A stretch of 64,000 bases of DNA from Schmidtea nova (lineage: Eukaryota), in NCBI GenBank assembly GCA_044892505.1, contig CM097882.1, forward strand, positions 438,898,001-438,962,000, in the 5' to 3' direction. Shown piece by piece: positions 1,344 to 49,158 of the stretch. The notes under the pieces are model-generated. The model made no database searches, was not told the origin of the DNA, and was given only the letters and a program-made list of their open reading frames with translations. The translations under genes were made by a program, and so were the position numbers. Numbering within the stretch: position 1 is the first letter of the stretch; every line of letters begins with the position of its first letter.

Positions 1344-2347
1344 TGTTGGATGACGAGGGAAGACGCATAGAAGCATTCAAAGTCAATAAATATTATCATA
1401 TTGGCAACAATAGATACCGAATAAATATATATCTAGAAAAGTAACCCCCGATCAAATCTCAGCTATCTCAATCTCAATCATTCAAAGTATCAATTGTCCG
1501 TCCCAATCGTTCGAAATCACTTTCAAAAGTAACTCTCTAAAACTCTGATCAATCATTAACTATTGTCTGTCATCAATCAAACTCAAAACCTGTCTAATCC
1601 TTCATTTGTGATCATCAATTAAATCATTGTCTAACAATTTACAACCCTATCTTTGTGATCATCATCTGACTAATTAGTGAATTTTATTTTATCCCCACAA
1701 ACAATCAAAACTGTTATTTTATTAAATTATGAAAAATTTTGTAGTTTAAAACTTTATTTTATTATTAGTTAGATTTTATTATTTTTTATTATTGTAAAAA
1801 ATTTTTTATTTTATTATTAGTTAAAATTTATTATTGTTCATGTGAATGTCGCAAAACAAAATTTATTAAATGTCGTGGCATAAATCGATTTAATTTTCCA
1901 AGTGAAAGGAATTTACTGTAAATAAAACAATTTTAATAAATGTCAGCACAAATTTCAAATTTTCCAGGTGAAAGGAATTTACTGTAAATAAAACAATTTT
2001 AAATGTCAGCACAAATTTCAGTATATAAGGCAATGACAATTTAGTCAAATTGCCATAAAATCAAAGGTAAAATTTTGCGGTTAAATTTTGCTCTCTCAGG
2101 TACAAATCATGTAGAGCTTTTAAAATCGACCGGTTGGTCAAAAACATATAAAATTTAAAACTTGTTGAAGTTAAATTGAAGGTGTGAAAGTATAGAATAT
2201 CTATTTGTACACAATTATCGGTAATAATTTTGTTAATCTTGTTATTAAATAAATCTTATTAACAAACGTTTATTGTCTTAGTTTATTTATATAGGAACCA
2301 CCAACCCCCAGTTGAGATTTCAAATACACATATTTGAGACCTCAACA
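1344..2347 (+). repeat. 5' LTR (1004 bp)
   Basis: Starts TGTTGGATG, ends CTCAACA; no difference from the 3' LTR seen by eye; ~65-bp tandem duplication (1892-2020) just before TATATAA (2022-2028). Confidence 0.97.
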
Positions 2348-2349
2348 TT

Positions 2350-2367
2350 TGGTGCCGTGAACCGGGA
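2350..2367 (+). promoter_or_regulatory. Primer-binding site, tRNA-His type
   Basis: TGGTGCCGTGA 2 nt after the LTR, complementary to the ...UCACGGCACCA 3' end of eukaryotic tRNA-His(GUG). Confidence 0.85.
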
Positions 2368-2597
2368 CAATAAAATATTATAATATCAATCGGGGGATAG
2401 GAATTGCGATCAGAGGGATAGTGTAATATATTTTGGGAAATATATCTATATTTAAATATTAATTGACCAAAATTAAACTGAAATTAAAGATATAAACACA
2501 TAAGGTTAACAATAACAAAATAGGTAGAAAGATTAAGAAAGTCGATATAAAATCACCTGAAATATTGCACAATTTAAGAAAAAAAGTAATCTACAAG

Positions 2598-3798
2598 ATG
2601 AGTAATAACAGTACAAGTAGCAGCAATAGTGGAAATAACAGTAATACAGAAAACACCAACAGTAATCATAATTTTATAAAACATTACCAATAGAATCATA
2701 TAAAGGAGACCCTGAAAAGTTCGACGACTTTTTTGCCGAAATCGCACAATATGCAGAGGCTTGCGGATGGACAACAAATGAATTAAAACAACGAATCCCA
2801 TTATATTTAAAGAGATATGCGTTACAGGTATATAATAATTTAGCATGCAAAGGCATCAATTATAATGAATTAGTAAAAAACCTTAGAAAAGAAATAGTAA
2901 TAGATCGAGATTTGCAAAAAATAAATGTAGAAGTAGATACCAAGGAGCCAGAGAATCAGTAGGTGAATATATATACACGATAACAGAATTAGCAAAAAAG
3001 GCATTTGGTGCAGGAGATCACACTAGTGAATTAATTGAGGATCAGTTTTGGAACAGAATCCAAAAATATTTATACAAAGCATTAATTACAATTGAGTATG
3101 AAGACTTAAATGAGTTAGTTCATAAAGCAAAACGTATTGAAGCAATACAAAGAGATAGATTTAAACCAGAGATAGATGCTGTAGAAATTGAAAGACAACC
3201 TGAGGTAAAGCCTGAGTTGAGAAATAAAGATGATAGCATCCCTTGGGAAAAAATGAAACAATTATATTTGAATTTTGTTAATAATAGACGAAGAGTTAGT
3301 CCAAGTAGAAGCCAATCACCTGAAAAAAGGGGAAGGTTTAACAGTCCAGGAAATAAAAATTTCGATAATAGAAATAATTTTAAAGATAGTTATAAAAGAA
3401 ATAATAATAGAGATAGTTTTAGAGACAATCGTTTTGATAATGATAGAGACAACATAGACACTTTTAGACATAGTCGTTCTAGTTATAACAGAAACAGTTA
3501 CAATGGATACAATAGAAATAATAGAGATAATCGCTTTGAATATAATAGAAGAGATAATAGATATAGAGATAATTCGAGAAATAGACAGGATAGCCCGGTA
3601 AGGCGAAATATGTATAATAATGATGGTAGAGATAAAGTAAATTTTAATGGACAAATAAAATGTTATAATTGCCAGAGGTATGGGCACTTAGCAAAAGTAT
3701 GCAATAAACCACGAGCTGATTCACCAATTGGAGTAAGATTTAAAAATGAGCCTGAGATAAAACAGGTAAATAGTGCTGAGCTTGAGATAAAGAGATAA
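2598..3798 (+). pseudogene. gag: Gag with RN-rich low-complexity region and CCHC zinc knuckle, frameshifted
   Basis: CYNCQRYGHLAKVC at 3661-3702; capsid-like segment FFAEIAQYAEACGW...IPLYLKRYALQVY; several single-base shifts. Confidence 0.85.
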
Positions 3799-4232
3799 AA
3801 TAATTTAAGATAAATAATTTAAGAGAAGAATTAAAAGAATTTAAAATTCAATATGGAAGACTCATTGAGAGAAAACTTGAAATGTCTATAAATGAATTTA
3901 ACACTTTTACAAATGAGGTAGATATTTATAATGATGAGTTAAAAGAAATTAGAGAAGCAGATGAAATATTTCTTACAGAAGAAAATAGACAAAAAGAATT
4001 AATAGAGGAATTTAAAGAGGTATTGTATAAGCAACCATTTGATGACAATGAAACATTATGAGTAAATAATAAAATACAGGTTAATGTGCATGATTTAAAG
4101 AAGCTTAGAAATTTAATACCAATGATGGTAAAGAGACAAAATGTAACGAGAGTATTTGAATTAGAAATAGAAATAAAAGAGATGTTGAAATGTTATGGAG
4201 AATATATAAGAAAAAATGAAAAATTGCATGAA

Positions 4233-4470
4233 ACACTAAATGTAACGATTGAATCAAATGATAATTATTTTTTAGTATTAAACAAAATTTGCATCCTTGC
4301 ACTAAAGTGAGTAAATTAAAACGAATGGCAAGAGCCAAATGGCCAGGAACCATAGGAAAGAGAGATGTAATAAAATTATATTTTAATGGAATAGAACTAT
4401 TGAATGACGAATATTTAATTGACTATGGGATAAACCCAGTAAGTGATAATATTGTGATAGCTAGTATAGA
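4233..4470 (+). CDS. Ubiquitin-like domain without di-Gly, inside the retroelement polyprotein (one frameshift near 4290)
   Basis: TKVSKLKRM...KLYFNGIELLNDEYLIDYGI aligns by eye with ubiquitin TIENVKAKI...[20 protein letters not shown]. Confidence 0.7.
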
Positions 4471-4705
4471 AAAGCAAAGGATAAATGAAATAATGACACC
4501 AGCACCGTCAGTTGAATTGAGTATAAATGAGGAAAATGATTTTGACAGGTTATTCAGAACATGGGATAAATCACCTAGTGAAACAATGAAATCGATAACG
4601 GGGGAAGAAATTATATTTAAACCTATAGATGATAAATATAGTAAACTACAAGAAACAATAGAAAGAATAGCTGACGAAGCAAAAACGAAAGATGCAGAAA
4701 CATCA

Positions 4706-4732
4706 AAGCGAGGTAGAGGAAGACCTCGAAAA
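4706..4732 (+). CDS. AT-hook motif
   Basis: KRGRGRPRK contains the canonical RGRP core with basic flanks. Confidence 0.8.
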
Positions 4733-4839
4733 TCAGAAATTATAGAAAAATCAGAGAATAGAAAGACAGCAGAACGATTAAGAGAGATTGCAAATCAACA
4801 AAGACATGAACAATCAGAGTATCAAGATGATAGTAATGA

Positions 4840-5200
4840 CGTAAACAAAATAAAAGAAGTAATAAAAGCAATGAATATTAAGCTATTTCCAGAAACAAAG
4901 CCAACAGTACTAATTAAAAATATAACTGAAAGGATGATGTTAATTAAAAAGGATACTAAAGAACTAGCCACAGAGGAGGCAAATGAAAAAACAATATTAA
5001 AAATCCTGTTTAATACAGGGATAGATAAAGATAAAATAATAACGGCCAAGGCATACTTGGCCGCAAGATATAAAAAGCTCATAAAGGAAAATCCAAAAGA
5101 GCAATTAGAAAAAGTAGCAACAATGATGTTTAAAAGATTGAAAGTAGAGGCAATACCATGGATAAAAAAGAAAGGAGGATGGAAAGTATTATATGATAAA
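4840..5200 (+). CDS. Bcl-2-like domain
   Basis: BH2-like PWIKKKGGW (W codon at 5159; cf. Bcl-xL PWIQENGGW) about 35 aa after degenerate BH1-like ILFNTGIDKDKII (cf. LFRDGVNWGRIV). Confidence 0.7.
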
Positions 5201-5280
5201 AATACGACGAATAAAGAGAGTGATACAGATGAGGTAATAAAACAATTAATAAAGAAAGCAACAGTAAAACCAAAGACAGA

Positions 5281-7140
5281 GAGTAAATCGATAACCTCCA
5301 TAGTAATAGTCATAATCACTTTGTTATTAGATTTAATCAAGGGGGGGGGCAATGCAATGGTAGCATATGATTGTCAAAATCCAAAGTGGGGACAAAAATA
5401 CTCGCTGTTAGATGTTGAAAATTGCCCTGAAGCAAATCCAACTAAATTAATCATGTCAGAGCCTCAAATATTCCATGTTTATCAAGAATCAGACTTTATT
5501 CATACGGAGGCTAAAGAGTGTATAGTAAAGTACCAGGAGGAAGCATATATATGTCATGCTGGGGCAAGAACAGTGTTAAAACCTACGTGGACACCCGAAG
5601 CAGTAATATTGTCGCCAATAGAGTGTGAAGATGCATTCAAAACAAATAAAGTAAAATATAGCGGTCATAAAGAAATCGAACTAGAAGCAAGGATAGGAGC
5701 AAAAATGAGACAAGATGTAAATGTCGTGGGATGGACATCAAAAGGTGGATATTGTGAAAGAGGGAGAATATACAATATAGGGTGAAAAACTGAGTAATGT
5801 TGTAGTAAGGAGACACTACATGGTAGAACTGAGAAAGTTCAAAGCATCATTCGACAGCAGCTCAAAGAAAATGATGATATACAAATTTTGTACATTAGAA
5901 GAATCTTATTGCGATACAGGAGAATCAATGCTAATATACAAAATAGATAAATACGATTGCCAGTTAACAAAATTAAAATCATTAAAGTTTAGGGAAATCA
6001 AAGGAAAACAGTTCACAGAAGTAGACTCAAAAAGAGTGAGAGATCAAAAAAGGAAAACAACAATTGTACAAGAAAAAGATACACCAACAATATATATGTC
6101 AGAATCTGAAAACGAAGCAATGAGGTTCGTTAGTAAAAGGAAAAGTGTAAAATGTGGTAAGGAAATAATACAAACTAATTATGAAGGGATATACATAAGT
6201 AAAGAAGAAGTCAAAGATGCAAAACAAAAAGTAAATTAATTCGACGTCAAACTTGCATCATATTTCAACAATAAAATCGATTTTTTCTATAATAATCAAC
6301 TAGTACAATTAGATAAAGTATATCAATCAACAATTATGAGCGATTGCAAACTCAACAGAGAAATATTAAGGACAAAAATGGCAGTCGCGGTAACAAACCC
6401 AGATTTAATGGCACCAATAATCTTCTCAGAAGAAGGAACATTTGCAAGGATAGTAGGAGAAGTGATACAGACATTTCAATGTAAACCTGTTAGTGTATCA
6501 TTAGCAACAAACAATCAGTGCACAAAAGAGCTACCAGTAATATATAATGGAGAAAAGGTATACCTTCAACCAATTACTAGAATACTAACAGAAAAAACAT
6601 ATATACCGAGAAAAATAGAAAAATGCACTAACTTATTAGACCCATTATACAAAATAAATGACGAAATGTGGATATCTATGTCAGATAGAAAGGAGGCAAT
6701 GAAACCCCTCAAATTAGAACTCATAAAGTTAGAAAAAAGATTAGAGTTTAAAGAAATCAACGATATGGACAGCAATGGTATATATACAAGAGAAGCTATA
6801 GAAAGTGCAAGAAAACACATGCTATTTCCAAACGAAAAAGAAAGAGTACTGTCAATAATGGTGAACAGAGTTATCGAAGGAAGTTACGGAGGAAATTACA
6901 ACTTTGATGTAAGAGTAGAAAGTAGCATATAAAGTACTATATAGCATATGGGGATATTTTGCAGTCCTTGGAAACATGTTTTCTACAATCTTAGGTATAT
7001 ATTATACGGTTGCATTACTAAAAATGATATGTTCTTCTCTAGTATCACTGAGACAGCTAAAACAAGTATTTGGAAATTCATATAAATTATTAGCATGTTT
7101 GTGCCCATTTATAGCTAAATATCTTAAATCGGCGAAACAC
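5281..7140 (+). pseudogene. env: Envelope glycoprotein, chuvirus/herpes-gB (class III)-like; disrupted by frameshifts and in-frame stops
   Basis: Hydrophobic SITSIVIVIITLLLDLI then AYDC...YSLLDVENC; GEVIQTFQCKPVSV, CTKELPVIY...YLQPITRIL, GIYT...LFPNE; TM WGYFAVLGNMFSTILGIYYTVALLKMI. Confidence 0.85.
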
Positions 7141-7439
7141 GACAAGGAAATACGTTTAATAAAAGTCCAAAGGAATGAAGAAAGGCAATTATTGGTAGAT
7201 GATGAAAACGATGAGGAAATAATTAAAGCACATATATCACATGAAGGAAATGTACCACAACAAGGACTATATGAAAACCAAAGAGAACAACTAAAAGAGC
7301 TACAAGAAAATATAGAAATCAAAATTCCTAGAGAAAACAAGAATTGTCACTGTGAACCTAAAAAGATATATGGTTGTTATAGCTTAGAAGTCGAAACAAT
7401 GGAACGATTAGATGCAGCAAACGAAGCAAGACCAAGACT

Positions 7440-10400
7440 TAAAATAATTATAAACAATATAATCATAAATGCATTAGTAGATACAGGAGCAGCAACATCC
7501 TTAATTAGAGAAGATCAACTGACAGATGATCAAAAAAGAAATATTATGAGCACAACGGATAAAGTAGTATCGCTATCAGCACATTGTATTCCACTAAAGG
7601 GAGACATAGAACTAATAGTCGAAACACTAGAACAGGTAATAAACCACATATTTAAAGTGGTACAAGAATGTTATAGCATATATATATTGGGAATCGATAT
7701 ACTCAACAAGTTAGAAAACTGCATCATAGATTTAACAGATAATACGATAAAGAGAAAAGCAATTAAACATAAATCCAAGTTCACAGAAGTTGTTGCATTA
7801 GAAGCATTTGAATTGGAATATGAATGCGATCATATAATTCCCTTAAAAGTTAACATCAAAAGTGAGGACACTTTTATTTTTGAGCCAGAAACGGCAATTA
7901 TACAAAATCAGAATATAATGCTAACCAATGAATGCGTAATTCCGAGAAAGGGAATAATACCATTGAGAATAGCAAATTATGAAAAAAGTAATGTTAAAAT
8001 ACACAAAGGTACGAAATTGGGAAAATTATTCAAAGGTGAATTAGAGAAAACGTACGAAGTCAGTGAGACAAGCGTGATGAATGATAACGACAAGGGAGTA
8101 GTCGAACCTAGTAAGATAAATAATATAAAATCATATGACAAAGTAAAAATTAATAATAAATACTTAACAATAACACAACAAACACAACTACAAACATTGA
8201 TAGATAAATATAGTGATGTTTTTGCAAAACACGAATTTGATCTAGGAGATACCGATATAATCAAACATGTAATAGATACAGGTAATGCTAGACCAATAAA
8301 ACAAAGACCATACAGCGTACCATATAAGTTAAGAGAGGAAATAAAACGACAAATCAAAGAACTAAACGATGCAGGTGTAATAAAACAGAGTTTTTCACAG
8401 TGGGCATCACCCATTGTACCCGTTAAAAAGAAAGATGGAGAAATAAGAATGTGCATTGACTATCGCAAATTAAATGATGTAACAGTAAAAGACTCATACC
8501 CATTCCCAAAAGCACAAGAGCAATACGATAAACTTAGGGATGCTAAGTATTTTTCAGTCATTGATGCCAATAAAGGGTATATGCAAATTCAAATGGAAGA
8601 AGGAGATGCGGAAAAAACAGCATTTGTTATTGAGGATGGTTTATATGAGTACACACGACTACCTTTTGGGTTAACTAACGCACCAGCTACATTTCAGCGT
8701 TTAATGAACACAATATTAGTAAATGTACAACACTGCGCAGTTTACATGGATGATATACTAATATCATCAAAAACATTTGAGGAACATTTAAAAGATATAA
8801 CAAACGTACTTGAGAGACAAAGAAAAGCAAGGATAAAAATTAAACCAACCAAATGTAAATGGGCAGAACCATCAGCATTATTTTTAGGGCATATAGTTAC
8901 AGTTGAAGGGATAAAACCAAATCCAGAAAAAATAAAAGTTGTAAACAAATTCCCGATACCAAAAACAGTGCAACAAGTACAAGGGTTTTTAGGTTTAACA
9001 AGCTATTACCGTAAATTCATACAAGATTATGCAAAGATAGCATCACCTATAATAGAACTAACAAAAGGAATTAAAACAAAAGGAGAATGCAAAGATGTGT
9101 TAATAGTACAAGAAATTAACAATAAAGTTAACAAGATACAAAAGAAGTGGACAAAGGAACATCAAGAACATCATTCGATAAACTAAAAGAAAGATTGATA
9201 ACAGCACCAGTGTTAAGGTACCCAGATTTCGAAAAACAATTTATAGTAATGACGGATGCCAGCGGGAAAGCCGTAGGAGCAGTCTTAGGTCAAGAGGAAG
9301 AGAAAGGGAAAGATTACGTAATAACATATGCTAGTAAAACATTAAAAGGAGCACAGCTGAGGTATTCAACAATAGAGAAAGAATGTTACGCAATAGAATT
9401 TGCCCTAAAACAATTCAAACCATACATATATGGAACTGAAGTAATAATAAGAACGGACCATAAACCATTAGAAGGCTTATGGAAACATAAGGATACATCA
9501 AGTAGACTACTAAAATGGGCAATGAAAATACAAGATATGCACTTGAAAATTATATATAAACCAGGTAGAATAAACAAAAACGCAGATGCACTGTCAAGAA
9601 TACCAGAATTAGGAGCACTTGAAATATTTGCACTAGTAGCAGAAAAGCCAATCGATATATATGAGTAACAGATGAAAGACCTAGAAATCAGCAAAATAAG
9701 AAATGAAATCAGAAAAGAAAGTAATTCAAAGTATAAAATATCAAAGAGATTAGTAGTAATAGAGGATTTCAGTGGTAAACAATTAATAGTAGTACCTCAA
9801 AAATTAAGACAAATACTTCTATTACAATATCACGATGGAGCATTAGGAGGTCACTTATCATCTAGAAAAACAGCAAGTAGATTATTACAAAAATATTACT
9901 GGAAGAGTTAAAGAAAGATGTTAAGAGATGGTGTAACGCGTGTACAATATGTGCAACAAGAAAAAATACAGGCACAAAAACAAAAGCGCCGTTACACCCT
10001 ATTCCAGCAACAACATCACCAATGGAACTATGTGCAATGGACTTCCTATGTAAATTACCTACTACAATTAATGGGAATAAACATATACTAGTATTTAGTG
10101 ATTATTTTACTAGATGGGCGGAAGCATTCCCAACAAAAGATGAAACAGCAGAAACTGTTGCTAAATTACTCATAGAAAAAATAATTTTTAAGATAGGTAC
10201 ACCTAAAAGATTATTAACAGATAAAGGAACAAATTTTACTAGCGAATTAATAAAAAGGGTAGCTAGCATTTTTAACATGCAAAAGATCAACACAACAGCG
10301 TATCACCCTCAAACTGATGGGCTAGTAGAAAGGTTTAACGGGACATTATTAAGCAGACTAGCGGTCTTTGTAGGCAAAAATCAAAATGATTGGGACGAAT

Positions 10401-10900
10401 ACGTAAGTCAATGCACATACATCCATAATATCACTCCAAATGAAACAACAGGGTATTCACCGTATTACTTAATGTTCTTAAGAGAACTAGCAACACCAAT
10501 AGATACAATTTTTGAACCTCGAGTATCACAATATTTAGACGCACCAGATTATGTCACACTAATGCAGGAAAAACTGCAAGAAGTGTATAAAGTAGCTAAT
10601 TTAAAAGTCAAATTTAGACAAGAACAGTACAAAGCCGACTATGACAAAAATAGTAAACCACATAACTTTAAAGTAGGTGATAAGGTTAGACTTATGTCAC
10701 CACATGTAGGAAAAGGAAAAACAACAAAGTTAGCAAGACCATATAAAGGTCCATACGAAGTAGTAAAAGTAATAAATGAGAATCTACACCTACAAAAGCA
10801 CAAAAATGAGGATCCAATAGTAGTACATGTTAACAGATGCAAGTTAGCAGAGGCAGAGGTCACGATAGATAAACCTCACAAGTATAATCTTAGGTCTCAT
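7440..10900 (+). pseudogene. pol: Pol: aspartic protease, RT, RNase H, integrase
   Basis: LVDTGA (7480), MCIDYRKLN, YMDD (8743), TDAS...YSTIEKECYA, HHCC (9831-9952), D..D..E, GPY and YNLRS; frameshifts near 9170 and 9905, TAA at 9666. Confidence 0.97.
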
Positions 10901-10903
10901 AAC

Positions 10904-11688
10904 AAGCTAATAATATCGGCTATCTTCTTAACAATCATAACAGTTGTTGGTTCAACCAAAACATTAGAATTTGACAAATTATTAATAAAAATATCAACAA
11001 ACGAAGTGAGGGTATTTATCATAAACACGGGAGTAATCGACATATACATGCAAACACCAGATAAAGAAAATCCAAAGATGATAAAAAGAAAAGAGGACAG
11101 TACAACCAAGGAAATCGAAAGAGGAAACTATGTTAACTTCACAAAACTAACACCTAATACAATATACAGAATCTGCATACAGAGAGACACAGATACAACA
11201 ATATGGAGATGCAAGAGAATAAAAACAGAACAGAATAAAAAACAAAGATCCAAGCATAACAAAAACGACGACAATAACACCAGATAGAACAGAAAGCACA
11301 AGAACAAAGACAACGACAACAAACAATATATTAAATATCACTGCACATATAGACAAAATACCAACAAACACTAGAATAACAAAATTCCAAAAACAACAAC
11401 AAAAACAAAAACATATCAAAATAAAACAAGGAAAACCAATAGTTACATAACTTAGAGGAACTACAAGCATTTCAAAAAAGGGATAAAAAGCCACATTGGC
11501 CATATTATGTAATCACAGCATCGATAATAACATTAGCAGTCTTAGCTTTAGTAACTAGCACACAAATATACAAAAAGTACAAATGGAAAAGGCAGCGGTA
11601 TTGGAGCCGACTGGTCAAAGATGTACCAGGACATTTCCATTTTGATAAATACATACCTGGCATATACACAATATCAACACAAGTATGA
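10904..11688 (+). pseudogene. Type I membrane module fused after integrase: signal peptide, FN3-like domain, Thr-rich stalk, TM, tail ending STQV
   Basis: LIISAIFLTIITVVGS is in frame with integrase; FN3 signature FTKLTPNTIYRICI; after frameshifts TKTTTITPDRTESTRTKTTTT, TM YYVITASIITLAVLALVTS, KKYKWKRQR, TGA at 11686-11688. Confidence 0.7.
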
Positions 11689-11809
11689 TGCAAACTGGTC
11701 AATAATATTTATTAAAATTATATATATGTATATCTATATTTTGGTGTATGAGGGAAAACCAGCATTACACTTCAAATTTAAAATTGATTATTTAATTTGT
11801 AGAAAGAAA

Positions 11810-13669
11810 ATGTACAATAGCAATCAACCCGACAGACAATCAAATAGACAATTCAATCAGCACCCAAACAAACAATTCAAACAACACAACCAACCCAATC
11901 GTCAACACCCATACAAACAAAGTCAATCCCACAGTCAATCGTTCGAAAAGTACGATTAAATGTTCAAACAAAACGAGCAACCCGCATCTTATCAAAAATA
12001 CACCTGTTTTATAAACAAACTGGGAAACAGTTTTTATAAAAATAGCCAAAACAAAATCAGTACAGACGGACAACCCATCACCATAAGAAATTTCCCTAAC
12101 CAAGTCTGCACACCCAACGAAACGAAGATAGACATCGAAGAGAGAGAACTGAGCATAATCAAATTTAATGATGCTCGAAGAGTCAAACTCCGAGAACTCA
12201 TTGGGAGTTTCGACCAATATAAAAATGTGGATAAAGCGGTGGTAGAAGGTAAAAAAGTACCTCACCAGTTAACATTCCACATCACAAAAACCGAGGTATC
12301 GATTTGCCAAAACAAAATCCCACTTATGACAACAAGCAATTGCTCGCTCGTAATCAAATTAATCAGAAAAGACAGGAGCATGAGTAACGATTTTAACGAG
12401 TTACTAATACAAATGAATAGCCTACCCTGCGTTATTGCGATAGAAATAATTTATATTCCAACAATGCCAAATCCGTTCAGGCAACTAGAGAGCATTCCAT
12501 CATCTATCAAATTAACAGAAGATCTAATAAAAAGAAGAATCTCATTCACCCAACAAGAACTGTCTATGGAAGAAAGGCATGAATTAATAGTGTTTCTGGA
12601 TATCAAGTTAATAACGGACATCAACGGAAACCAAAGGCCAGTAGAAATCAGCATAAGAGACGATCAGGGCAGTACAATATATGATAAAAAGATAACCCCA
12701 AGATCAATGATCAGAGATTTCAAAATTGAAAGAACCAGAGCAACTAAAGAAAACATTATAGGAAACGAGGATGAATATCAGGCATTAAATGATGTCAGAA
12801 GCATATTATATGGAAAAATAATAATAGGATTCGGAATAATGGATAAACTCAAAACACTGGCAATGAAAATCAATTATGTCATGGGGATCCGAGAGATGGA
12901 AGAAGATCAGTTCATGTGCACATTCGTGAAGAATGTAGAACCGCACAAAATTAAACTATCCAACTTGGCATACCAAGTTGTAAGTCATCATAAACGATGG
13001 TTCAAGGACAAGAGGGTAAACGAATTATTAAGAAGACCAGAACCATTTTCAGGATCAGAAACCACCAAATTGGTCAAAATAATATACATGATAACAGAAA
13101 CCCAATGGGAAGAGGTAATTAAATGGAACCAAAGAAGATTCCAAGAAGAGATGGATCCAAGAAATAGAGCAAACATAGAAAATAAAGGACAATCCAATAA
13201 CGATAACAACTGGGAAAGTGAATCAGAAGGAGAGGAGGAAGAAATTCTACAAACATCTACAGAAGAATCAACAGCTAGTGACGATGACTTTATTTTCATC
13301 AGCGAAACAAGAACAACCAACATGGAAATGAGGGAAACAAAAAGAGAACCAGTCGTACGACAGGAAAAAATGGAGGAATGTGACCTGGATCCAGAAGAGG
13401 AATATTTTTCACTTGAAGAAGAAGTAGAAATGGATCAGATACCGAGTACAAGTTATCAAGAAACCGATATAGGGTCAGAACCCGAGATCGAAATATTGCC
13501 GGAAGAACTCACAACCACAGAAAAGGATACCTGCGTTGGAAAACAATTCAGGAAGGACCTTTTAACATTCAGAAAAGAACAGAGGAAGACAATCATCCAA
13601 GTGAAAGAAAAAGAAATCGAACTCGTCATATCAGATAAAGGTAATGAGGGCATTACCTTGACGGCCTAG
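11810..13669 (+). CDS. Accessory 3' ORF: Q/N-rich N-terminus, REX4/ISG20-like DEDD exonuclease fold with degenerate active site, acidic C-terminus
   Basis: ATG 11810 in frame with 11960 across one TAA (11957-11959); IVFLDIK...EISIRDDQGSTIYDKKITP...ILYGKIIIGFGIMD...IKLSNLA at 12587-13092. Confidence 0.7.
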
Positions 13670-13676
13670 GGAGGTA
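13668..13676 (+). promoter_or_regulatory. Polypurine tract
   Basis: AGGGAGGTA immediately before the 3' LTR. Confidence 0.8.
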
Positions 13677-14680
13677 TGTTGGATGACGAGGGAAGACGCA
13701 TAGAAGCATTCAAAGTCAATAAATATTATCATATTGGCAACAATAGATACCGAATAAATATATATCTAGAAAAGTAACCCCCGATCAAATCTCAGCTATC
13801 TCAATCTCAATCATTCAAAGTATCAATTGTCCGTCCCAATCGTTCGAAATCACTTTCAAAAGTAACTCTCTAAAACTCTGATCAATCATTAACTATTGTC
13901 TGTCATCAATCAAACTCAAAACCTGTCTAATCCTTCATTTGTGATCATCAATTAAATCATTGTCTAACAATTTACAACCCTATCTTTGTGATCATCATCT
14001 GACTAATTAGTGAATTTTATTTTATCCCCACAAACAATCAAAACTGTTATTTTATTAAATTATGAAAAATTTTGTAGTTTAAAACTTTATTTTATTATTA
14101 GTTAGATTTTATTATTTTTTATTATTGTAAAAAATTTTTTATTTTATTATTAGTTAAAATTTATTATTGTTCATGTGAATGTCGCAAAACAAAATTTATT
14201 AAATGTCGTGGCATAAATCGATTTAATTTTCCAAGTGAAAGGAATTTACTGTAAATAAAACAATTTTAATAAATGTCAGCACAAATTTCAAATTTTCCAG
14301 GTGAAAGGAATTTACTGTAAATAAAACAATTTTAAATGTCAGCACAAATTTCAGTATATAAGGCAATGACAATTTAGTCAAATTGCCATAAAATCAAAGG
14401 TAAAATTTTGCGGTTAAATTTTGCTCTCTCAGGTACAAATCATGTAGAGCTTTTAAAATCGACCGGTTGGTCAAAAACATATAAAATTTAAAACTTGTTG
14501 AAGTTAAATTGAAGGTGTGAAAGTATAGAATATCTATTTGTACACAATTATCGGTAATAATTTTGTTAATCTTGTTATTAAATAAATCTTATTAACAAAC
14601 GTTTATTGTCTTAGTTTATTTATATAGGAACCACCAACCCCCAGTTGAGATTTCAAATACACATATTTGAGACCTCAACA
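13677..14680 (+). repeat. 3' LTR (1004 bp)
   Basis: Same length and apparent sequence as 1344-2347. Confidence 0.97.
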
Positions 14681-22984: not shown

Positions 22985-23717
22985 TGTATATTAAATTTTT
23001 CCTGACAGAATATTTTTGCTTTCTTTTAAATACGCATACTATGATATTTAAAAAACAAAGAAAACAAAAATTAAATAAATTTGTTTTATGTTTAAACAGG
23101 TTTAATCAATAGAATACCCAAAATATAAAATTTCTATGTATTGTTTTTTTGGTATCGATTTTTTTTAATGTTTTAAGAGAGAGAAATGAAATAGAAATCT
23201 GAAATAAACACAAAAAATTATAAAACGTATTTTTATCTTGCAGAGTAAAAATGAAATCCAATTGGTTTTCGTATTGCCTACCACTACTAAAACGTGTTTC
23301 AAAGAAATTTGCAGTGACACTCATAATTCAAAAATCGTTTGGAAAAAAACGTATCAAAAATATAACCATCTCTTTTATCCTTTTCATGTAATATTTTTTC
23401 TGTTTTGCTACATTTTATTTTCTAAAATGAGTAGTCCATTTGTATGTTCGTTTTAAACTATAAAAAAAGAAGACATTTATTTTTTATGTACCTACTGTTT
23501 GCACTCTTCTAACACGAAAATAAAAAAAGAAACTTTTTCGGAGTGATAAGTTTACAATTACAATTTTGAGGAAATTAATGAGTAAAATAATAATTGTGTA
23601 TTTTTAAATTACTAATCCATTAATCATTAAAATATCACGGTATGTATTTATAATTTGGTATTAAATTTTGTTGAATATTTACTTGATTAAAATCTTTGTT
23701 GTTAGCCCTATTAAACA

Positions 23718-25698
23718 ATGGAAAGCAACAATTTATCTAACTACGAAAACGAAACCAAAAAGACATTATGGGACTTCTTTTTGCGTAAAGGAAACGATGC
23801 CGCGAAATGCAAGAATTGTAATAAAACTTTAAAATCCGTAGGAGGTTCTACCAGTGGACTACACTATCATCTTAGAAGTCAGCATCAAATTAATTTACTA
23901 AAGCGAGATAAACCAGACCCTTCTACGCAATTCTCTCAAAATAAAAGCGACTGCGCTGTGAGCACTTCAAAGGGTGGTATTATGAATTATTTCAGAAACG
24001 TAGTTGATGATACTCTTCCTGCAGTGATTTCTAGGATGGTAGCAAGGGATGGGTTACCTTTTGAAAAGTTTTGTACCTCTTGTGATTTGAGAAAATTATT
24101 AATTGCAAAAGGATATGATGTCCCAAAATCAGCAAATTCAATCAGAAAAATTGTAATGGATTACGGAGAAAAAATTAGGAATGAAGTACGTGGAGAAATT
24201 TCAAATCATAGCAAAAATGGAAGCAAGTTTAGCCTCACGTTTGATGAATGGACATCCATCAAAAACCATCGTTACATGAATGTAAATGTCCATGTTGAAA
24301 AACTGTTTTGGAATTTAGGCTTAACGCGGTTGCAAGGATCGATGCCTGCAGAAAAATGTTGTGAAACTCTGGAAAAAAAACTTCAGGAATTTGGACTAAA
24401 TTTTAATAGCGTCGTAGCGATAACTACAGATGGGGCAGCAGTAATGAAGAAGGTTGGTGTAGTTTTAAATATACATCATCAGCTATGTTATGCGCATGGA
24501 ATCCAGCTCGCGGTGGTTAAAGTTTTTTTACAAAAGAAAAAGTGAAATAATTGAATTAGCAGAAGAACCAAGTAGTTCCATAGAAGATACCGAAGATTAT
24601 TATGATGAAGATGATGATCTTAATGAAAATTTGATTATAGTAGTAACGGATGATCCAATAGTTCAATGTGATATCTCCCATGAAGAATTATTTCCTATTA
24701 TAAACAAAATACGAAGAGTAGTGAAAATATTTCGAAAGTCACCTACTAAAAATGATGACACTCTTCAAAAGCATGTCATCAATGAATTTGGATCTGAAAT
24801 TTCTTTAATATTGGATAGTAAAACCCGATGGAACAGCTTATTAGCTATGCTGGAACGTTTCTTCAAATTAAAATCCGCTGTGAGAAAAAGTTTAATCGAC
24901 TTGAATGTTGATATCAATTTTTCAGAAAATGAATTAAACTTGGTTAATGAAATGATAAATGCATTGGAACCAATAAAATTGGCAGTTGAATCTCTAGGCT
25001 CCTCAGATTTTACATTATTAAGTGCTGATGTAACACTCAAATTTATGCTTGATGAATTATATGAACAGAATACTGTTCTAAGCAGAGAACTTCAACGTGA
25101 ATTAATCCTTCGAATCGAAGAACGTAGAACAAATTACTCAGATGTGCTTCAGTTCTTACAAAATCCTTTAGAATATGAAATATCAAAGGATAACACAAAT
25201 TATGGATTATTTAATAAACTAAATAAAAGCGCAATAGTCAAAACTATTGTTTCAATTATTGAGCGCTTGGTAATAAATATTGATATAAATAATGAAACAG
25301 AAACTGAATCACCTGAAGATGAGACAATAAATTTGTCCGTAACCGTACCACAACAGTTGACAATGAAAGAACGGTTAAAAATCGCCATTCAAAGGAAAAA
25401 TGAAGTTAATTTTGACACTTTGGCTACTTCACCAATTAAAAACAAAAAGAAAATAGAGAATATCATCAAAAAGGAAATGAATTCTATTGCGGAGGAAAAA
25501 CGCCTTGGAACATATTTGGAATTAGCACAAAAATATTTGCATACAATAAAACCAACGAGTGTGGAGTCAGAAAGAGCCTTTTCTGCTACAGGAAAATTGT
25601 GTACGAAGATTAGATCAAATCTTAATGATCAAACAATAGATACAATTTGTATTTTACGTGGATATTTTGGTAAGCAGAAACATTTAGTTGGTACTTGA
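23718..25698 (+). CDS. hAT transposase with BED zinc finger; one +1 frameshift in a T7 run near 24525
   Basis: WDFF..KCKNC..TSGLHYHL..QH; FDEWTS, TTDGA, CYAH, TRWNS, SVESERAFS. Confidence 0.95.
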
Positions 25699-29646: not shown

Positions 29647-31178
29647 TGTTGGGCCAGGCAAATCAACAAGAATCTGAAAGAAAAGTGAAATCAATAAATA
29701 ACATAAAAATAACAACCAAATAAAATTACTAAGCATGCAGCAATATGCAGTAGAAGCCGAAAGCACTGAAACATAAATCAAAATAGATAATAACAATAGA
29801 AACTCACCCATGCGAAATATCGATAGCTCAAAATCTGACAAGGCGTAGGCAGATATCACCGAAAGTCTACAAGAAAACAAATATTAACAAAAAATTTACG
29901 GATGATTGAACAACAACTTACCGAATTAGGTATATAGTCGATTATAGTCGATATAGTCGATTTCCTCTAAATAACTGAAGCATTGTCATAATGGATTACC
30001 TGTGTTTCATAGTTAATAAAGAAATGTTTTATCGATTGTGTTATTACTTGAATACATGTGGTAATAATGGGTGATGTCATCAGATTGATAAGGGATCCTT
30101 AGGGTAGAACCCAGATACCGATGATTGATAACGATGATAGTACATAAGGGGGGAATTGAGCGAGATGTGTGGAACCATGGAGGCAGAGAACATACTAATC
30201 CACCCACTTTTCATTTAGATGTATGCAGTAAAGAATCGTGACTACCGGGAAGAGGCAAGGGAATCTCGGAAGCGAGCCAAGGCCCTCGAAGGTCGGCTAA
30301 GACAGTTGGATACCGAGTTTCAGCTAATAAAGACGACTTGGTTCGATCCGGAACGAGTAAAAAGCATCCAACAAGCCAGATACCAGGCTGAAAGAGCAGC
30401 AGAAGAACAGGCGCGAGAAACAGCAGCGGTCAAGTTAGAGCTGAGCAACTACTTGTGGGCCTCTACTAAAGATTTCATTGAGCAACAGTTGAGACCGCTT
30501 ATCCGAACTAGTACCTTCGATCGATGGGTGCAGACTACTAGCGTCTCCATGGGCGTGCAAACTGATATGAACTTAAACCTGAGTTCAGACTCTCCGGAAA
30601 ACATTCAGAAATCAGAAGGATCTAAGCGTACCAAAAGAAGGAATCGACTGGGTGCTAAAAGGCGTCGAGAAAGAAGGGCTTATGCAGAACGAATTGGATC
30701 GAAGTAGATCTTTTGAGTGAATTAACGGAAAATCAACTGCTGGCCGTCATTAATTCTACTGTGTTGTTGAATTAAATAAATGTATTATAGTTAAAGTGTA
30801 TCTTTAGGAATGAATGTGGAATGAATGAGGATTTAAATAAACGAATGATTGAGTATATCTAAATCATTAATGCCAAAGGACATGAGGAATCTAAATCAAC
30901 CCTAGACATAATGAATTTAAATGAATGTGAGGGGACCGGAGAAAAACCACGCAAACCTTCTATCGGTAGTGGCGGACCCGTGAATAAATAAGGGAATAGT
31001 AGCCACAAGGTTGCTCACCTGCCTTATCATTTCACAACGTTGATACAGTTCCAACATGATGAGTAGTTAGGGATACATCATGGGTATCAGCGGGGAAAAC
31101 GTTTTATGTTGGCGGGATCACCCTAACCAATAATATCAAGCATGATCTCTGTTGAAACATCCGACCATCAAACCAGCA
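29647..31178 (+). mobile_element. Solo LTR (1532 bp) containing an ORF
   Basis: TGTTGG...CCAGCA ends; 4-bp TSD GAAG; removal restores integrase KSPAY-FPRSNGSTERAV. Confidence 0.88.
30219..30707 (+). CDS. Coiled-coil protein with basic C-terminus, inside the solo LTR
   Basis: 162-aa ORF, homologous to 47497-48096 (LKTTWF.PE.VK.IQQ.RY, RETAAVKLELSNYL, KRRNRLGAKRRRERRAYAE). Confidence 0.7.
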   Translation: MYAVKNRDYREEARESRKRAKALEGRLRQLDTEFQLIKTTWFDPERVKSIQQARYQAERAAEEQARETAAVKLELSNYLWASTKDFIEQQLRPLIRTSTFDRWVQTTSVSMGVQTDMNLNLSSDSPENIQKSEGSKRTKRRNRLGAKRRRERRAYAERIGSK

Positions 31179-34100
31179 GAAGTATGCTGGCGATTTTAGC
31201 TTCATTGCTCCTTGGCTGTTGATCCACGCGTTTAGCTCATGCGAAGTGAATTCCTGGGCATTATCCAAGACGAGGCATTCCGGGACTCCGAACCTGGTGA
31301 AAACAGTTCGTAAACACGTGATCACTGACTTCCTCGTTTTATCGGATGTCTTGAAGGCTTCAATCCATCCCGAACCAGCCTCTACAATAATGAGCACGTC
31401 GCCCACCTCTTTGATGTGGGCCCAATCCATATGTACTCTTTGGAATGGTTTTGCTTCTGGCCATTTGTGAATGCTCTTCTCTGGGCGAGGATGTAGTTTC
31501 TTGCAAATTGCGCATAACCTAATGAAGTTGTCGATGCATTTCTTCATTAGTTTTGGTGGAATAAATAGACGTGACCCGTGGTAAAGCAGTCCATCTTCAA
31601 TTGTTAGTCTGTCTGATATTTTCTTGAATGGCATTTATGATTGTGAGCATTTCGACCAATTGCCTTTCTTGATGCGACGCATGATATCTCTGGCCAACTC
31701 GTTTAGCGATGTTTCCAATCTGACCTCTGAGGCATTTAATAAGCCCTCGCTAAACTGGACCGTGAAAACACTCAATGTGTTCTTGGTTTTGATTTCCTCG
31801 TTTGCTTCCTTTTCATCGATGAATTTTAGTCTTGATAGCGCATCTGCATGCGGGATCTGCTTTCCCATAACATAGTACATTTCATAATCGTACTCCATCA
31901 ACAGCATGGCCCACCTTGAGATTCGATTGGATGTTCACCTTGGAATCGGTGATTCGCTACCGAATAGGGATTAGAGTGGTTGGTGGTCTGTATTCACCTT
32001 GAATTTCCTCCCTAATAAGAAGTGTTGTAGTCTAGATATAGACCATACTATGGCTAAAGCCTCTCTCTCTATGTTAGAGTAATTTCTTTCGGCATCCGAA
32101 AGTTTTCTGGAAATGTAGATCACAGGATGGCCATCTTGGGTTAGGACAGTTGCTACGGTCGTCAATGTAGCTTCCTTTTCGAGGCTGTAAGGTTGCACAA
32201 CTGGATACGTTGAAATTTCTTGTTTTGTTGCTTTGAACTGGTTCGAGCATTCCTTGTTCCAATCGAACTTTACACCTTTTTTTCTCAATTCATTGATTAC
32301 TCTTGTTTTGTCTGAAAAATTTGGAATTAACCTACCAAAGTTATTAATTAACCCGATGAAAGATTCTAATTCCTCCTTGCATGTTGGTTCTTTTATATTG
32401 TTTATTTTGCTGACGAGACTTTTATCAGGTGTGATACACTTTGACGATATTTCGAAACCCAAGAAGGAAACACTATCGGTAAGTTCAATAGTCTTTGCTT
32501 GGTTGATTGTAACTTTTTTCTCTTTAACGCGCAATTTTACCGTTTGCAGTCTTTTCCTTAGTGATTCTTCATTCTCGGCATATATCAGTACGTCGTCTTG
32601 GTAGATTAGTATTCCTTTGATATTTTTAAGTATTTGCTCCATTGTCCTTTGAAAGATTGCAGAGGCGTTCCTCATACCCATATGTAATCTATTTACATAA
32701 AACATACCTTTTGTCGTATTTATGCACGATATCTCTTTTGCTTCATCGTCTAATTCTATCTGCCAATATGCCGATGTGAGATCGAGCTTTGCAAATTTGT
32801 TGGAATTCTTTAGTTTTGAGAAAATTGTTTCGACGTTCGAAATGGGGTATGCATCGGTCTTTATCTTTTTATTGATATGCACTTTGAAGTCAACGCATAA
32901 TCTGAGGTCGCCATAGCTCTTTTTTACCCAAACCACGGGCGAAGAATTCAGTACGGGTTTGGTGCACGGAGAGATTACTCTTAATCGCTGTAACCTTATT
33001 AGTTCATCATTAACCTTATTTTCTAAAGCTAATGGTATTGGCCTAGCCTTACAGAACATGGGCTTCACATCGTCGATTAAATCCATAGAGGCTTTTATAC
33101 CTTTGATTGCTGGTAACACTTGAGATTCTGTTGTCTTCGTGAGTTGACACTGTAAGATTCCGTGTCGTGTCTGCTGCAGTATATCCACTCCTATTAGTCC
33201 GAAGTCCTTCATAGATTGAATGACTGTGATTGTTACCGGAAGCACTTGCTTTTCCCATTCCACAGTTGTCAGAAACGAGCCGTAGCATTGCATGATATGC
33301 CCATCGTAGGCTTCAAGCTTTCTTCTTGTCTTGTCAAGATTCGGTCTTCCCATGTCTTCCCACATCTTGGATGATATGATTGATACAGATGCCTGGTATC
33401 TTTTTGCATTTTCACTATCGTTGTACCTAGGAGGACAGGGTTAATGTCACTTGTAATATTATTTGAAGTGAACTGGTTGATGTATTGCGTGTCACTTTCA
33501 TCGGCTGACGATGTCTGATCTGCGAATGTTCCGTGTATCGACTTTGTCGAAGATCTGCAAGCTTTCGCAAAATGATTCATTCTGTCGCAATTCGTACACT
33601 TCTTTCCATATGCCGGGCATTTCTTTGGCTCGTGTATTCCGTCACAGTAATGACACCTTTCATTTCCTTTCTCTTCGAATTTCCTTGATGTTCCAAGGTT
33701 TGATCTTTTTTTTTAGTGAAATTGATTTCATCGGTCGTTGAGGTAATTCTAGGTTTTGTTCCATGCTGGAGGGATATGAACGTCGATATCTCCTCATATG
33801 TTTGCATTTGTGCGAGGATCTCGTTGCATGTCTGAATCCCAACACTCATTTGCAGCAAAATATTTTCCTTAGCATTGATGTCAGATATTCCTGATATCAA
33901 TGCCATGAGGAGCATATTCTCGCTGGGGTCAGTTGAGTCCTTCAATTTCTTGAAGTCACAATATATAGCAGCCTTCTTAAGTCTGATATAGAAATCTGCT
34001 AATTTCTCTTTCGGTTCCTGTCTTAGCTGATAAAATCTTGCTCTCTCAGCTATTACAACTTTGCTTTTCGGCTGTGTGTGGTTTAATAGCATGGCTTTGA

Positions 34101-34308
34101 TCTCGCTGAACGTCATCTCCTCTAGCAATTTGGGAGAAGCCATATCTTGGATTTTCGTGAGTGCCTTCAGTCCACATACAGATATGAAGTTGTCCATGAC
34201 TTGTCTTGATTTGTCACTGTCGACCCACTTATTGGCTCGACTCATCGCACCGAAAGCGGTTAACCATATTTCGACATTGATGTTGTAATCTAGGGTCAAT
34301 TCTTCCAA

Positions 34309-34319
34309 TCGTGACGCCA
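34309..34319 (-). promoter_or_regulatory. PBS, tRNA-Ser(CGA)-like, overlapping the gag ATG
   Basis: TGGCGTCACGA 1 nt after the LTR; A+TGG forms ATG GCG TCA CGA (MASR). Confidence 0.75.
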
Positions 34320-34646
34320 TTGTTATAATGCACGCACAAGACTTTTTAAGATTCAAATTATATTTATTATACAATGATTAGATATTAAAACAAAATATTA
34401 AAACGATGATTACCACGATTATTGTTAATCATCATTGAAAAAATTATGATGGATGGGGAAGGAAAGGTTTGCACATAGGGTATGTTTTCAACACAGGATA
34501 CATTTGCAATATATGATATTTTTTCAACGTATGATAATTTTCAACAGACGATAATTTTCCAATATACGATAGTCTTTCGACATGCAATTGCTCTCAATGT
34601 TCAATATCTTATACACGATAGTTTGTCACAGAACAAAGTCAACCAC

Positions 34647-39530: not shown

Positions 39531-42500
39531 ATAACTTCCCCCTTTAAAACCGGAGGTTACACTATTTACAACATAAAAATAAAACTGATCTATACATATT
39601 TCATCTGATGTCTTGTGTTGTAAGTATGTGTTCTGTGTGTTAAAACCAATTATAAAAATATAAAAATATACAATGATCATATGTTTGCGTGCTGTTTTTG
39701 ATAGCGTGTCTTGTTGCTGTGTTATTTGAAACAATCAATGTATTGTTTTTTCTGATATGATTGACGTGTTCTTGTTGGGAGGTTGTATGGCTTTATTATT
39801 AGTTTGTTTTTGTGTTGTTTGATTGTTATATTGTTAGGGTTTTAATCTGCGAATGTTATTTCTGATTTTCTTGTTATTTATTCATAGTGTGCCCACGTTT
39901 TTATTCAGATCGATTAATTTGTATATTTTGACTCGAAACCGCTGGTTTTTATATTAGCACTGTCTCATCAATTAGGTTTGTTTTATAGGGTCTTCAAGTT
40001 TTTTCCTATGTTTTCAACATTTTCTATTAGGTTTGGGAAATTTGTTGAATGCCCGAAAGTTAATTGGCTTGGGCTTTTGTTGTTTGTTGATGAAGGATTA
40101 TTTCTTAGTCCGATTAAAATTTCTGGGAGTTTTCCTAACCAGTTTCTGTCGTTGGCTTTGGTTCTGATCGCTTGTTTGAAAGATCTGTGTTGTCTTTCTA
40201 CTTTGCCATTTGATTGTGGGTTGTATGCTGTTGTTCTGATTTTTTATTTTATATTTTGAGCAAAGTCCTTTGAATAAATCTGATTCGAATTGTTTGCCTT
40301 GATCACTGATGATCATTTTTGGACATCCATCTCTTGAAAACCAGTTTAGTTCGATGTTATCGCCGACTGTCTTTGCTGTAATTTCTTTGATTAGTTTTGC
40401 TTCGAACCAGTTTGTTTTACGGTCAATCATTGTTAAAAGGTATTTGTAGTTGTCATTGGGTGGAAGTGCTCCTACTAAATCCACGTGGACTGTATCAACT
40501 GGTTCGGATGTTCGGAATTTTAATTTTTCTGTTTTGAATCTTTTTGTCAGTTTGTTTTTTTGGCAGCTTAAACATGAGTTGACAAATTCTTTGATGTCTT
40601 TCCTCATGTTTGGCCATATGACTTTTGTGTGCATGAGTTCGTATGTGACTTTTGTTCCTGGGTGGTATATGTTGTGGAACTGTTAAATAAGTTCGTTTCT
40701 GTGATTATCGGGTACTATTAGAATTTTTTGCTTTCGTTGGATATATCCTACCAGATTCCGTCAATCTCATTTAAAACTGATGATTTGAGTTTTGGGAAGG
40801 TTTTTATTGTTGTTTCTTGTTTGTTTTTCATGATTTCTTGGTTCACTATCGGGATCATACTTATTGCGTTTGTTTCTGTTTCGATTCGTGAAAGGGTGTC
40901 GGCGCAAATGTTTGCTGCGCCTGCTATGTATTTTATTTTACCATCGAATTGTGAAATGTAGTTAAGTTGTCTTATTTGCCTTGGTGATGGCAATTTCATG
41001 TTGATTGCGTTCGTCAGTGGTTTATGGTCTGTATACACTTCAAATTCTTTTCTTTCTAAGAGGTATTGAAAGTGTTTTATTGTGTCGTTTACAGCCAGCA
41101 ATTCCCTGTCGAAAGTGGAATATCGCATTTGGTGTGCTTTAAGTTTTTTTGTGAAAAATGCAATGGGTCTTTTTCCGTTATGCTTTTCTTGGTATATTGT
41201 GCCTCACATTGCTGTTCCAGAGCAATCAGTGTAGAGGATATATGTTAGGTTTGGATCGGGGTAGTTTAGTAGACTTGTGTTTGATAGATTTGCTTTTGCT
41301 TTTTCAAAAACACTTTTTAGTTGTTTGTTCCAGTTGATTTTAACGTTTCTTTTATTTTTTAAAAATCGTTTAGTGGTGCGAGTATCTCGCTGCACTTTGG
41401 AATGTGTTTGTGATAAAAGTTTATCATTCCCATATAACGTCTTAATTCTCTTGTTGTTTTGGGGAGTGGGAATACTTTGATGGCCTTTATTTTGTCGTCT
41501 AGAGGTGTTGTTAGATTTTCGTTAAGGATATGCCCCAAAAACTTGAATTCGTGTTTTAAGAATTCGCATTTCTTTATATTGATTTTGAGATCATGGTTGT
41601 TGAGGGTGTTTAGAACTTCCTTGATGTCCTGTATATGTTCGATTTTGTTTGTTGATGCGATTAGGATGTCGTCTAAATACGCTACCGTATTCCTGTGGTT
41701 TCTCAGGATTTGGTCCATGAACATTTGAAAAGTAGCGGCTTCGATTTTTTAAACCGAAAGGAATTCGGTTGTATTCATATAGCCCGATCGGCGTTATTAT
41801 TGCTGTCTTTTTGATGTCTTCTTCACGCATGGGAATTTGGTGGTATGCTTTTTGTAGGTCAATTTTACTGAAATAATTTGGGTTATGTATCCTGTTGATA
41901 ATGTCGTTGATTATAGGTATGGGGTATTTGTCGGGTATTGTGATATTGTTCAAAGTTCTATAATCTCCGCATGCTCTCCATTCGCCATTTGCTTTTTCTT
42001 TTAACATCAGCCCAGATGACCAGTTTGAATTGGAATGTTGAATGATTCTGTTTTCCAGTAAATCGTCGAAAATTTCTTTAATTATTGTGAGTTTTTTGTT
42101 GTCTAGTTGTCTTACTTTGGCGTGGATTGGGCTACCGATTTTTATGACGGCGTGTTCCGTAATGCATTTGTTTGTGGTTTCTATTGATAGTTTATCTGTG
42201 ATTGTAGGGTAGTTTTTTAGTAAGTCTTTGATTTCTTTTGGTATAGGATTGTCTGTGTTTGTTTTTTCGCATTTTGGTTGTATTTTGATTGTGTTTGCGG
42301 TTATTACTCCGATGTCACAATTTGTTAGAATTTTTAAGTTTTTGTAGTTAGGTGTGTCGTTTGGGTATTTTTCTGTTTCGAAATTATCTTGTTAATTTTT
42401 TTTATTTCGGCAGTCTACCAGCAAGTTGTATTTCGTTAGGAAGTCGGCTCCTAAAATTGCTTGTTTCACATCAGCGATGATAAATTCCCAATTGTAGTTT

Positions 42501-48493: not shown

Positions 48494-48760
48494 CTGATAT
48501 CGATAAACTACAAGTGTTGAAGAAATATTTCCCGAAATTGACATTAATTAAATATAATTTTAAAGAAATTGAAGATGTTCCAGATAATATTTCATGTCCC
48601 TATAAAGATCATAATATATTTGAAATTCACCCACAAGCTATGATGGCAATTCGAAATCTTGATGCCTGTTTCCTGCGGGGCAAACAAATGCATTTACGTA
48701 TATCAAAAACAAATGTCATCCAATTAGCAATGGAGGAGGCGAACCACGCAAATACCACAA

Positions 48761-48778: not shown

Positions 48779-48930
48779 CTGATTTATATTATCTATTTAT
48801 ATTAAAAAAATTTTATATTTATATTTATTTAAGAATAATTATCACCACATTTCCCCCTTCCCCTTTGCGTGTCCTTTCACCACCTCCTTCTCCGTTACTG
48901 AAAGAGCCTCATTATTTTCCTGTCCCCACC

Positions 48931-49158
48931 AAGGCTACAATACTAATGCGAGACTTCTCACGCAACTTATCTTGCACATTTCCAATTTCTCTAACCTTTC
49001 ACGATTTAAAACGCTTCATTTACTCCATTTGGCACTTGAAATTAAACACCTTCTATTTCTCACACATAGGTTTCAGCGTAGCCAACGATGGAGGACCATT
49101 AGCCAAGGTATTACCGCCGGGAGGAGTTATCCACGTGACATTAAGATTACGTGGAGGT
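48931..49158 (+). CDS. Ubiquitin-like domain ending LRLRGG, in frame with Gag (Met at 49159)
   Basis: TILMRDFS...TFHDLKRFI...YFSHIG...VIHVTLRLRGG|MNE; about 75 aa, ubiquitin-like spacing. Confidence 0.8.

Follow-up and report, generated by a model that had tools for sequence, protein, structure and literature searches.

We observed that an enveloped Gypsy element of Schmidtea nova (1344-14680 of the window, by which we mean the whole stretch of 64,000 nucleotides analysed) encodes, in one long frame between Gag and Env, what we interpret as a cassette: a four-helix domain (X), a ubiquitin-like domain (Ubl), a linker, a Bcl-2-like domain and a hydrophobic anchor. The domain order and the folds are evident, the Ubl evolves under purifying selection, and the arrangement is conserved over four families. 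We hypothesize that the cassette may well be cargo: anchored to the membrane on its cytosolic side, it would dampen cell-death or ubiquitin signalling of the host in particle-making cells. The initial annotation had reported the Ubl and the AT-hook, which lies in the linker; both are real, but the adjoining Bcl-2-like domain, signal anchor and Env had been overlooked.

Structure of the element and its copies

The element is flanked by a 4-bp target duplication, CAGT, and its Pfam matches follow the order zinc knuckle, Bcl-2-like, Monjiviricetes fusion glycoprotein, protease, RT, RNase H and integrase (Table 1). Compared to an unbroken copy, the window copy has frame-changing indels at nine sites between 2590 and 10800; that near 4267 lies inside the Ubl. 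The presence of nine such indels in an element with identical LTRs may reflect either trans copying of a defective template or errors in the assembly.

Table 1 Position of the features found in the window
Feature	Position	Strand	Evidence or remark
LTR element (Gypsy)	1344-14680	+	13.3 kb
5' LTR, TG...CA	1344..2347	+	1,004 bp, 100% identical to 13677-14680
Gag with Arg/Asn-rich stretch and one CCHC zinc knuckle (3661-3702)	2598..3810	+	zf-CCHC E 2.2e-4; broken in window copy
Four-helix domain X	3975..4229	+	model helices 2-18, 24-37, 41-57, 61-80; alignments
Ubiquitin-like beta-grasp domain, no di-Gly	4230..4474	+	profile, model, structure matches; split across frames near 4267 in window copy
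AT-hook motif KRGRGRPRK in acidic/basic linker	4706..4732	+	RGRP core with flanking basic residues
Bcl-2-like domain (BH1-BH2 region; BH1 NWGR replaced by DKDK)	4838..5200	+	Pfam Bcl-2 E 7.2e-6 in window copy, below cut-off
Hydrophobic segment, predicted Env signal anchor	5288..5356	+	hydropathy 2.1
Env, Monjiviricetes/gB-type fusion glycoprotein with C-terminal TM	5357..7230	+	PF24664 E 1.2e-43; broken in window copy
Pol: aspartic protease, RT, RNase H, integrase	7423..10843	+	Pfam RVP, RVT_1, RT_RNaseH, rve; broken in window copy
Putative second membrane protein past integrase, two hydrophobic segments	10898..11560	+	hydropathy; weak fn3 match E 0.067
ORF2; appears to contain degenerate DEDD-type exonuclease region	11555..13669	+	sister family C ORF2 vs ISG20L2 E 8e-8
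3' LTR	13677..14680	+	1,004 bp, 100% identical to 5' LTR
hAT transposase with BED finger, two frames	23715-25698		Pfam
Further broken Gypsy-type elements	30900-34400, 40000-43500, 55900-58900	-	Pfam
Separate Ubl ending LRLRGG, directly ahead of Gag of second Gypsy lineage	48925..49158	+	profile, locus comparison

A genome search for further copies of this family, which we call family A, covered 113 scored out of 3,805 candidates, all 90-100% identical, and 29 of the 113 have a single open frame of at least 3,050 aa. The uninterrupted order is Gag, zinc knuckle, X, Ubl, AT-hook, Bcl-2-like domain, signal anchor, class III-type Env and PR-RT-RH-IN. LTR pairs of 10 copies show 0-11 differences per about 1,150 bases and we therefore consider that family A has been active recently.

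Beyond the integrase, the predicted second membrane protein continues the integrase frame and its length varies among families (also L040:800-2053). The ORF2 of sister family C (L040:2450-3898) resembles ISG20-type DEDDh exonucleases (E 8e-8), while the exonuclease motifs look degenerate by eye in families A and B.

Sister families and distant relatives

Searches of the genome with Bcl-2 and Env revealed the sister families B (2,992 aa), C (3,401 aa) and D (3,393 aa). Their RT is 83% (B) and 52-54% (C and D) identical to that of family A, within an overall range of 50-84%. All four families carry the Ubl, with X directly preceding every Ubl examined; C and D have two Ubl, each behind its own X, and four zinc knuckles. 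X-Ubl as a tandem unit is seen in families C and D (L039:3270-4292, L041:3270-4292) and in protein P0005.

The domain order of family A is repeated in B, C and D and in the distant proteins P0001-P0003 and P0005 (26-30% identity). An exhaustive protein search gave 5 matches; P0004 was dropped as a relative because its match corresponds to the zinc knuckle only. Word-index protein searches and a scan of metagenome contigs found no relatives.

The ubiquitin-like domain

The motifs LYFNG (4376-4390) and LIDYGI (4415-4432) lie in the same frame as KRGRGRPRK (4706-4732), with about 95 aa between the Ubl motifs and the hook. In the window copy, the break near 4267 puts the first Ubl strand (from 4230) into a different frame. 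At 18 of the 23 family A loci checked the Ubl is in one frame; at the other 5 it is split across frames. None of 10 Ubls carries GG within 40 aa past the core, which confirms the ubiquitin signature without di-Gly described in the initial annotation.

In the ubiquitin-clan HMM search proposed there, single sequences score weakly, their best Pfam matches being below cut-off (Rad60-SLD PF11976 E 0.012, ubiquitin PF00240 E 0.018). A profile of 9 Ubls finds ubiquitin-fold chains for all of the best 60 of 317 matches, and matches the ISG15 C-domain as a single domain with E 7.4e-5. An alignment-based model of X plus Ubl (11 sequences, pLDDT 91) consists of four helices followed by a beta-grasp; it matches ISG15, SUMO and ubiquitin chains with Foldseek TM of 0.80-0.85 by target, and ubiquitin-fold structures with VIA Z 11.3 (rmsd 2.7, 78 aligned). 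An alignment-free model (pLDDT 57) gave no clear structural match and no beta-grasp match. Like the ISG15 C-domain, SUMO-like Nip45, Get5 and the Rad23 UBL, the element Ubl is modelled as a beta-grasp (Z 10-11); it differs from these integral ubiquitin-like domains in its low identity (15-22%, nearest family tied), its variable Ile44 position and the lack of di-Gly.

The dN/dS of the Ubl is 0.17-0.20 within family A, 0.40 for A versus B and 0.24 for C versus D, and is significantly below 1 in the four comparisons tested (4/4; Fisher p 6e-5, 9e-4, 3e-3 and 1e-5). The linker beside the Ubl is likewise under purifying selection, and dN/dS therefore does not single out the Ubl. Taken together, the profile and the model support a beta-grasp fold, which is conserved across copies and predicted to be non-conjugatable. 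At the position equivalent to ubiquitin Ile44, families A and B have Tyr and families C and D have Lys or Arg. Given this variability, the proteasome-type binding that the initial annotation had also proposed is doubtful.

Domain X

No significant family match was found for X in profile searches. We considered a likeness of X to LEDGF-IBD or TFIIS-N; profile comparisons gave this candidate no statistical support, with an hhalign probability of 0.4% and a score that 20 of 2,000 shuffles reached, as did about 6 of 947 decoys. The structure-match lists of the X-Ubl model, in which X was modelled jointly with the Ubl, were filled by Ubl matches. It is conceivable, if far-fetched, that X has a remote version of the integrase-binding (TFIIS-N-like) fold. 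Freed together with the Ubl and the AT-hook, it would then bring the integrase of the element to chromatin, and the Bcl-2-like part would remain membrane-bound. If true, the element would encode its own LEDGF-like chromatin tether. The genome also holds a host-type LEDGF/HDGF-related integrase-binding domain at L184:1477-1695 (PF11467, 29.8 bits).

The AT-hook

The Pfam AT_hook profile scores the motif at E 0.02 and 15.1 bits, below the 17.4 cut-off. The hook is unlikely to have arisen by chance: shuffling the linker produced it in 12 of 20,000 trials, and shuffling the whole ORF in 16 of 3,000. We consider the motif named in the initial annotation to be confirmed. Its RGRP core is retained at 24 of 24 family A loci, most of which were chosen by similarity to a query containing the hook. 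A hook-like motif is also present 85 and 63 aa past the Ubl in P0001 and P0003 (26-27% identity), two proteins found with a hook-containing query, so that its presence there is partly selected. The linker of families B, C and D has no hook. This distribution suggests an old motif that was lost more than once, or one that was gained more than once. The 15 codons around the hook show zero amino-acid changes among three subfamilies (p 0.067).

We looked at the AT content of the right-hand flanks at 0-200 nt and found 0.683 for family A (n=17), 0.740 for B (n=18) and 0.770 for D (n=16), in small samples for which the family A flanks come from one subfamily's LTR and one tandem locus and duplicate flanks were dropped. 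The difference runs opposite to AT-targeting (p 0.002); the p-value is 0.09 for the first 50 nt (0-50) and 0.075 for the first 1000 (0-1000). Another flank test counted both flanks per insertion and its p-values are accordingly overstated. Family A flanks are thus no richer in AT than those of the hook-less families B and D, and we rejected targeting of AT-rich insertion sites by the hook as unsupported.

The element hook shares with the HMGA/LEDGF-type AT-hook an RGRP core flanked by basic residues. Unlike that type it is present in a single copy, is patchy across lineages and comes with no sign of AT-rich insertion sites. It may be an optional basic patch for nucleic-acid binding or nuclear import rather than a guide to insertion sites.

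The Bcl-2-like domain, signal anchor and Env

A profile of the Bcl-2-like domain matches Bcl-xL over BH1-BH2 with E 4.4e-7, and several copies other than the window copy pass the Pfam Bcl-2 cut-off. BH2 WxxxxGGW is retained in all six element segments, across long distances, and BH1 NWGR is replaced in all six. In a tree of 73 columns the six element segments split from eight host-type segments with branch support 97/97; L034 and L036-L038 were left out, and 'host-type' was inferred from short open frames. Within family A the dN/dS of the Bcl-2 part is not significant (p 0.26), and between families dS is saturated. In Bcl-xL the NWGR glycine is needed for BH3 binding. Because the six segments have all lost NWGR and with it this glycine, a classical anti-apoptotic action is uncertain.

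All four families have a hydrophobic segment ahead of the Env start, with small residues before MVAYDC. Env of an unbroken copy matches PF24664 with E 3.4e-89. The presence of a Bcl-2-like domain, a signal anchor and Env past the hook makes the cassette Burro-like.

A second ubiquitin-like domain in the window

In a second Gypsy lineage (window 48925-49551, L179-L182) an RGG-ending Ubl is fused directly ahead of Gag. Its GG is retained at 14 of 20 close loci and at 4 of 4 related-family loci with long open frames, and its profile matches ISG15 and ubiquitin. The RT of this element is 72-74% identical to the related family, which itself is 36-38% identical to families A-D. Profile-profile comparison of the two Ubls detects no similarity (probability 0.46%), an absence that cannot by itself prove separateness. 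Together with the different position and the di-Gly at 49 kb, these results agree with the independence of the two Ubls that had been proposed, and separate origins are likely on the basis of sequence. Ubiquitin insertions in pestiviruses are released by host deubiquitinase; by analogy, a host deubiquitinase could plausibly release Gag from the 49-kb fusion. The LTRs of this element (48619-48759, 53601-54110) contain a stretch that, when translated, resembles both a ribosomal-protein-like fragment and an RRM-like one (RRM_5 E 0.0025).

Role of the cassette

Signal peptidase would cut ahead of the Env start (xAYDC), which would leave the cassette in the cytosol, tail-anchored by the Env signal sequence in the manner of a cellular Bcl-2 protein, and the element protease may release it from Gag. 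We infer this cytosolic, tail-anchored state because the hydrophobic segment and the small residues precede the Env start in four families. The Ubl would then be a docking surface and no modifier, probably acting by a route other than the Ile44 patch. The Bcl-2 match, limited to BH1-BH2, speaks against a cargo role, as does the assignment of the anti-apoptotic activity of Burro1 to a BIR-RING that family A lacks.

Alternatively, the cassette may be a structural Env leader or matrix equivalent that links the capsid to the membrane and Env in budding, the captured folds serving as scaffolds. Leader peptides of foamy-virus Env provide an analogy. Several features are consistent with such a leader: the cassette shares one frame with the Gag that precedes it and the Env signal anchor that follows; neither BH1 NWGR nor a constant Ile44 patch has been preserved; and in families C and D, X and Ubl have been duplicated jointly. 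We regard this main rival as possible but rather unlikely: the six element segments all retain BH2 WxxxxGGW across long distances, and Burro relatives accumulate several apoptosis and ubiquitin domains at the same place (PMC6431247).

The model of the initial annotation, with the AT-hook as a tether of the pre-integration complex on AT-rich DNA and the Ubl as a recruiter of proteasome receptors or adaptors, appears improbable. It would account for the conservation of the hook at the 24 family A loci, for its occurrence at the same place in P0001 and P0003 (found with the hook-containing query) and for the unchanged codons around it in three subfamilies. Three sister families are nevertheless successful without a hook, the right flanks of family A are the lower in AT, the hook lies about 150 aa upstream of the predicted membrane anchor, and the Ile44 position is not conserved. 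Highly improbable in our view is that the domains are passengers from host transcripts, retained merely since they must fold inside the polyprotein. Weak single-sequence scores, degenerate functional motifs and a cassette that changes faster than RT or Env would fit this explanation; the same order is however kept across families at 50% RT identity and in distant proteins, and dN/dS is well below 1.

A cargo acting on cell-death or ubiquitin signalling is the reading that we favour. The four families, which differ in the presence of the hook and in the copy number of X-Ubl, constitute natural controls, and the small domains of the compact element lend themselves more readily to testing than the domains of an element of 30 kb.

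Comparison with known systems

In the planarian Burro1/GYPSM1 a Ubi2/SUMO-like domain (PF11976) and BCL-2, followed by a mononegavirus-like env, lie in frame between gag and pol, and Burro relatives gather several apoptosis and ubiquitin domains between gag and env; that study proposes interference with apoptosis and ubiquitination (PMC6431247). Burro1 BIR-RING is reported, second-hand, to protect stem cells (PMC13465017), and control of BURRO1 by PIWI is described in PMC8532177. Flatworm gag-env-pol elements have been catalogued (PMC13524379).

Family A has the LTRs and the gB/Monjiviricetes-type (HSV/gB-type) Env between gag and pol of gag-env-pol errantiviruses. The gag-env-pol order is common to Smed_errantivirus_3, which is similar in size, with a listed span of 14.5 kb, and has an Env stretch close, by eye, to that of family A; likewise by eye, the Env of families C and D match Smed_errantivirus_1 and 2 (PMC13524379). 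The words 'ubiquitin', 'Bcl' and 'Burro' are absent from the main text available for that catalogue, which thus does not describe the cassette.

When we searched the genome for a giant Burro by its BIR, scoring at least 150 matches out of 1,295 candidates, we arrived at another kind of repeat. This BIR repeat comprises an ORF with a SUMO-like domain, an aspartic protease and ankyrins, a TRAF-like ORF (RING, zf-TRAF, MATH) and a BIR-RING ORF, and no RT was found in two regions examined. Its domain set is that of the Burro cargo, but in separate genes. The BIR repeat is high-copy and is located at L150:4383 to L151:5814 (G000:C1 near 119.25 Mb) and also at L155-L156.

With Burro1/GYPSM1 and Burro2-4 family A shares a single polyprotein, Gag with zinc knuckle(s), Ubl, BCL-2-like domain and an in-frame env before pol, and the SUMO-like PF11976 of Burro is also the best Pfam match of the element Ubl (PMC6431247). 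The Burro-type combination of Ubl, BCL-2 and env in frame between gag and pol is therefore present, without the giant size or BIR/MATH/ankyrin: family A measures 13.3 kb and about 3,070 aa compared to more than 30 kb and 4,873 aa for Burro as described in PMC6431247, and by Pfam it has no BIR, MATH/TRAF, RING, ankyrin or dUTPase. The term AT-hook has 0 occurrences in the text of PMC6431247. Our literature search found nothing on the hook or the cassette beyond that paper, and primary Burro descriptions may already annotate the hook or compact families.

The Ubl, Bcl-2-like and Env core of Burro thus also exists in compact, recently active families that carry none of the giant's other cargo, and for this reason the core may be the older part of the lineage. 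The layout is that of a compact member of the published Burro kind, and the principle of host death and ubiquitin domains in a Gypsy polyprotein is already in print. Within the literature examined, what is added to this layout is a compact form lacking BIR and MATH, X-Ubl as a unit that is repeated, the hook and the degenerate BH1.
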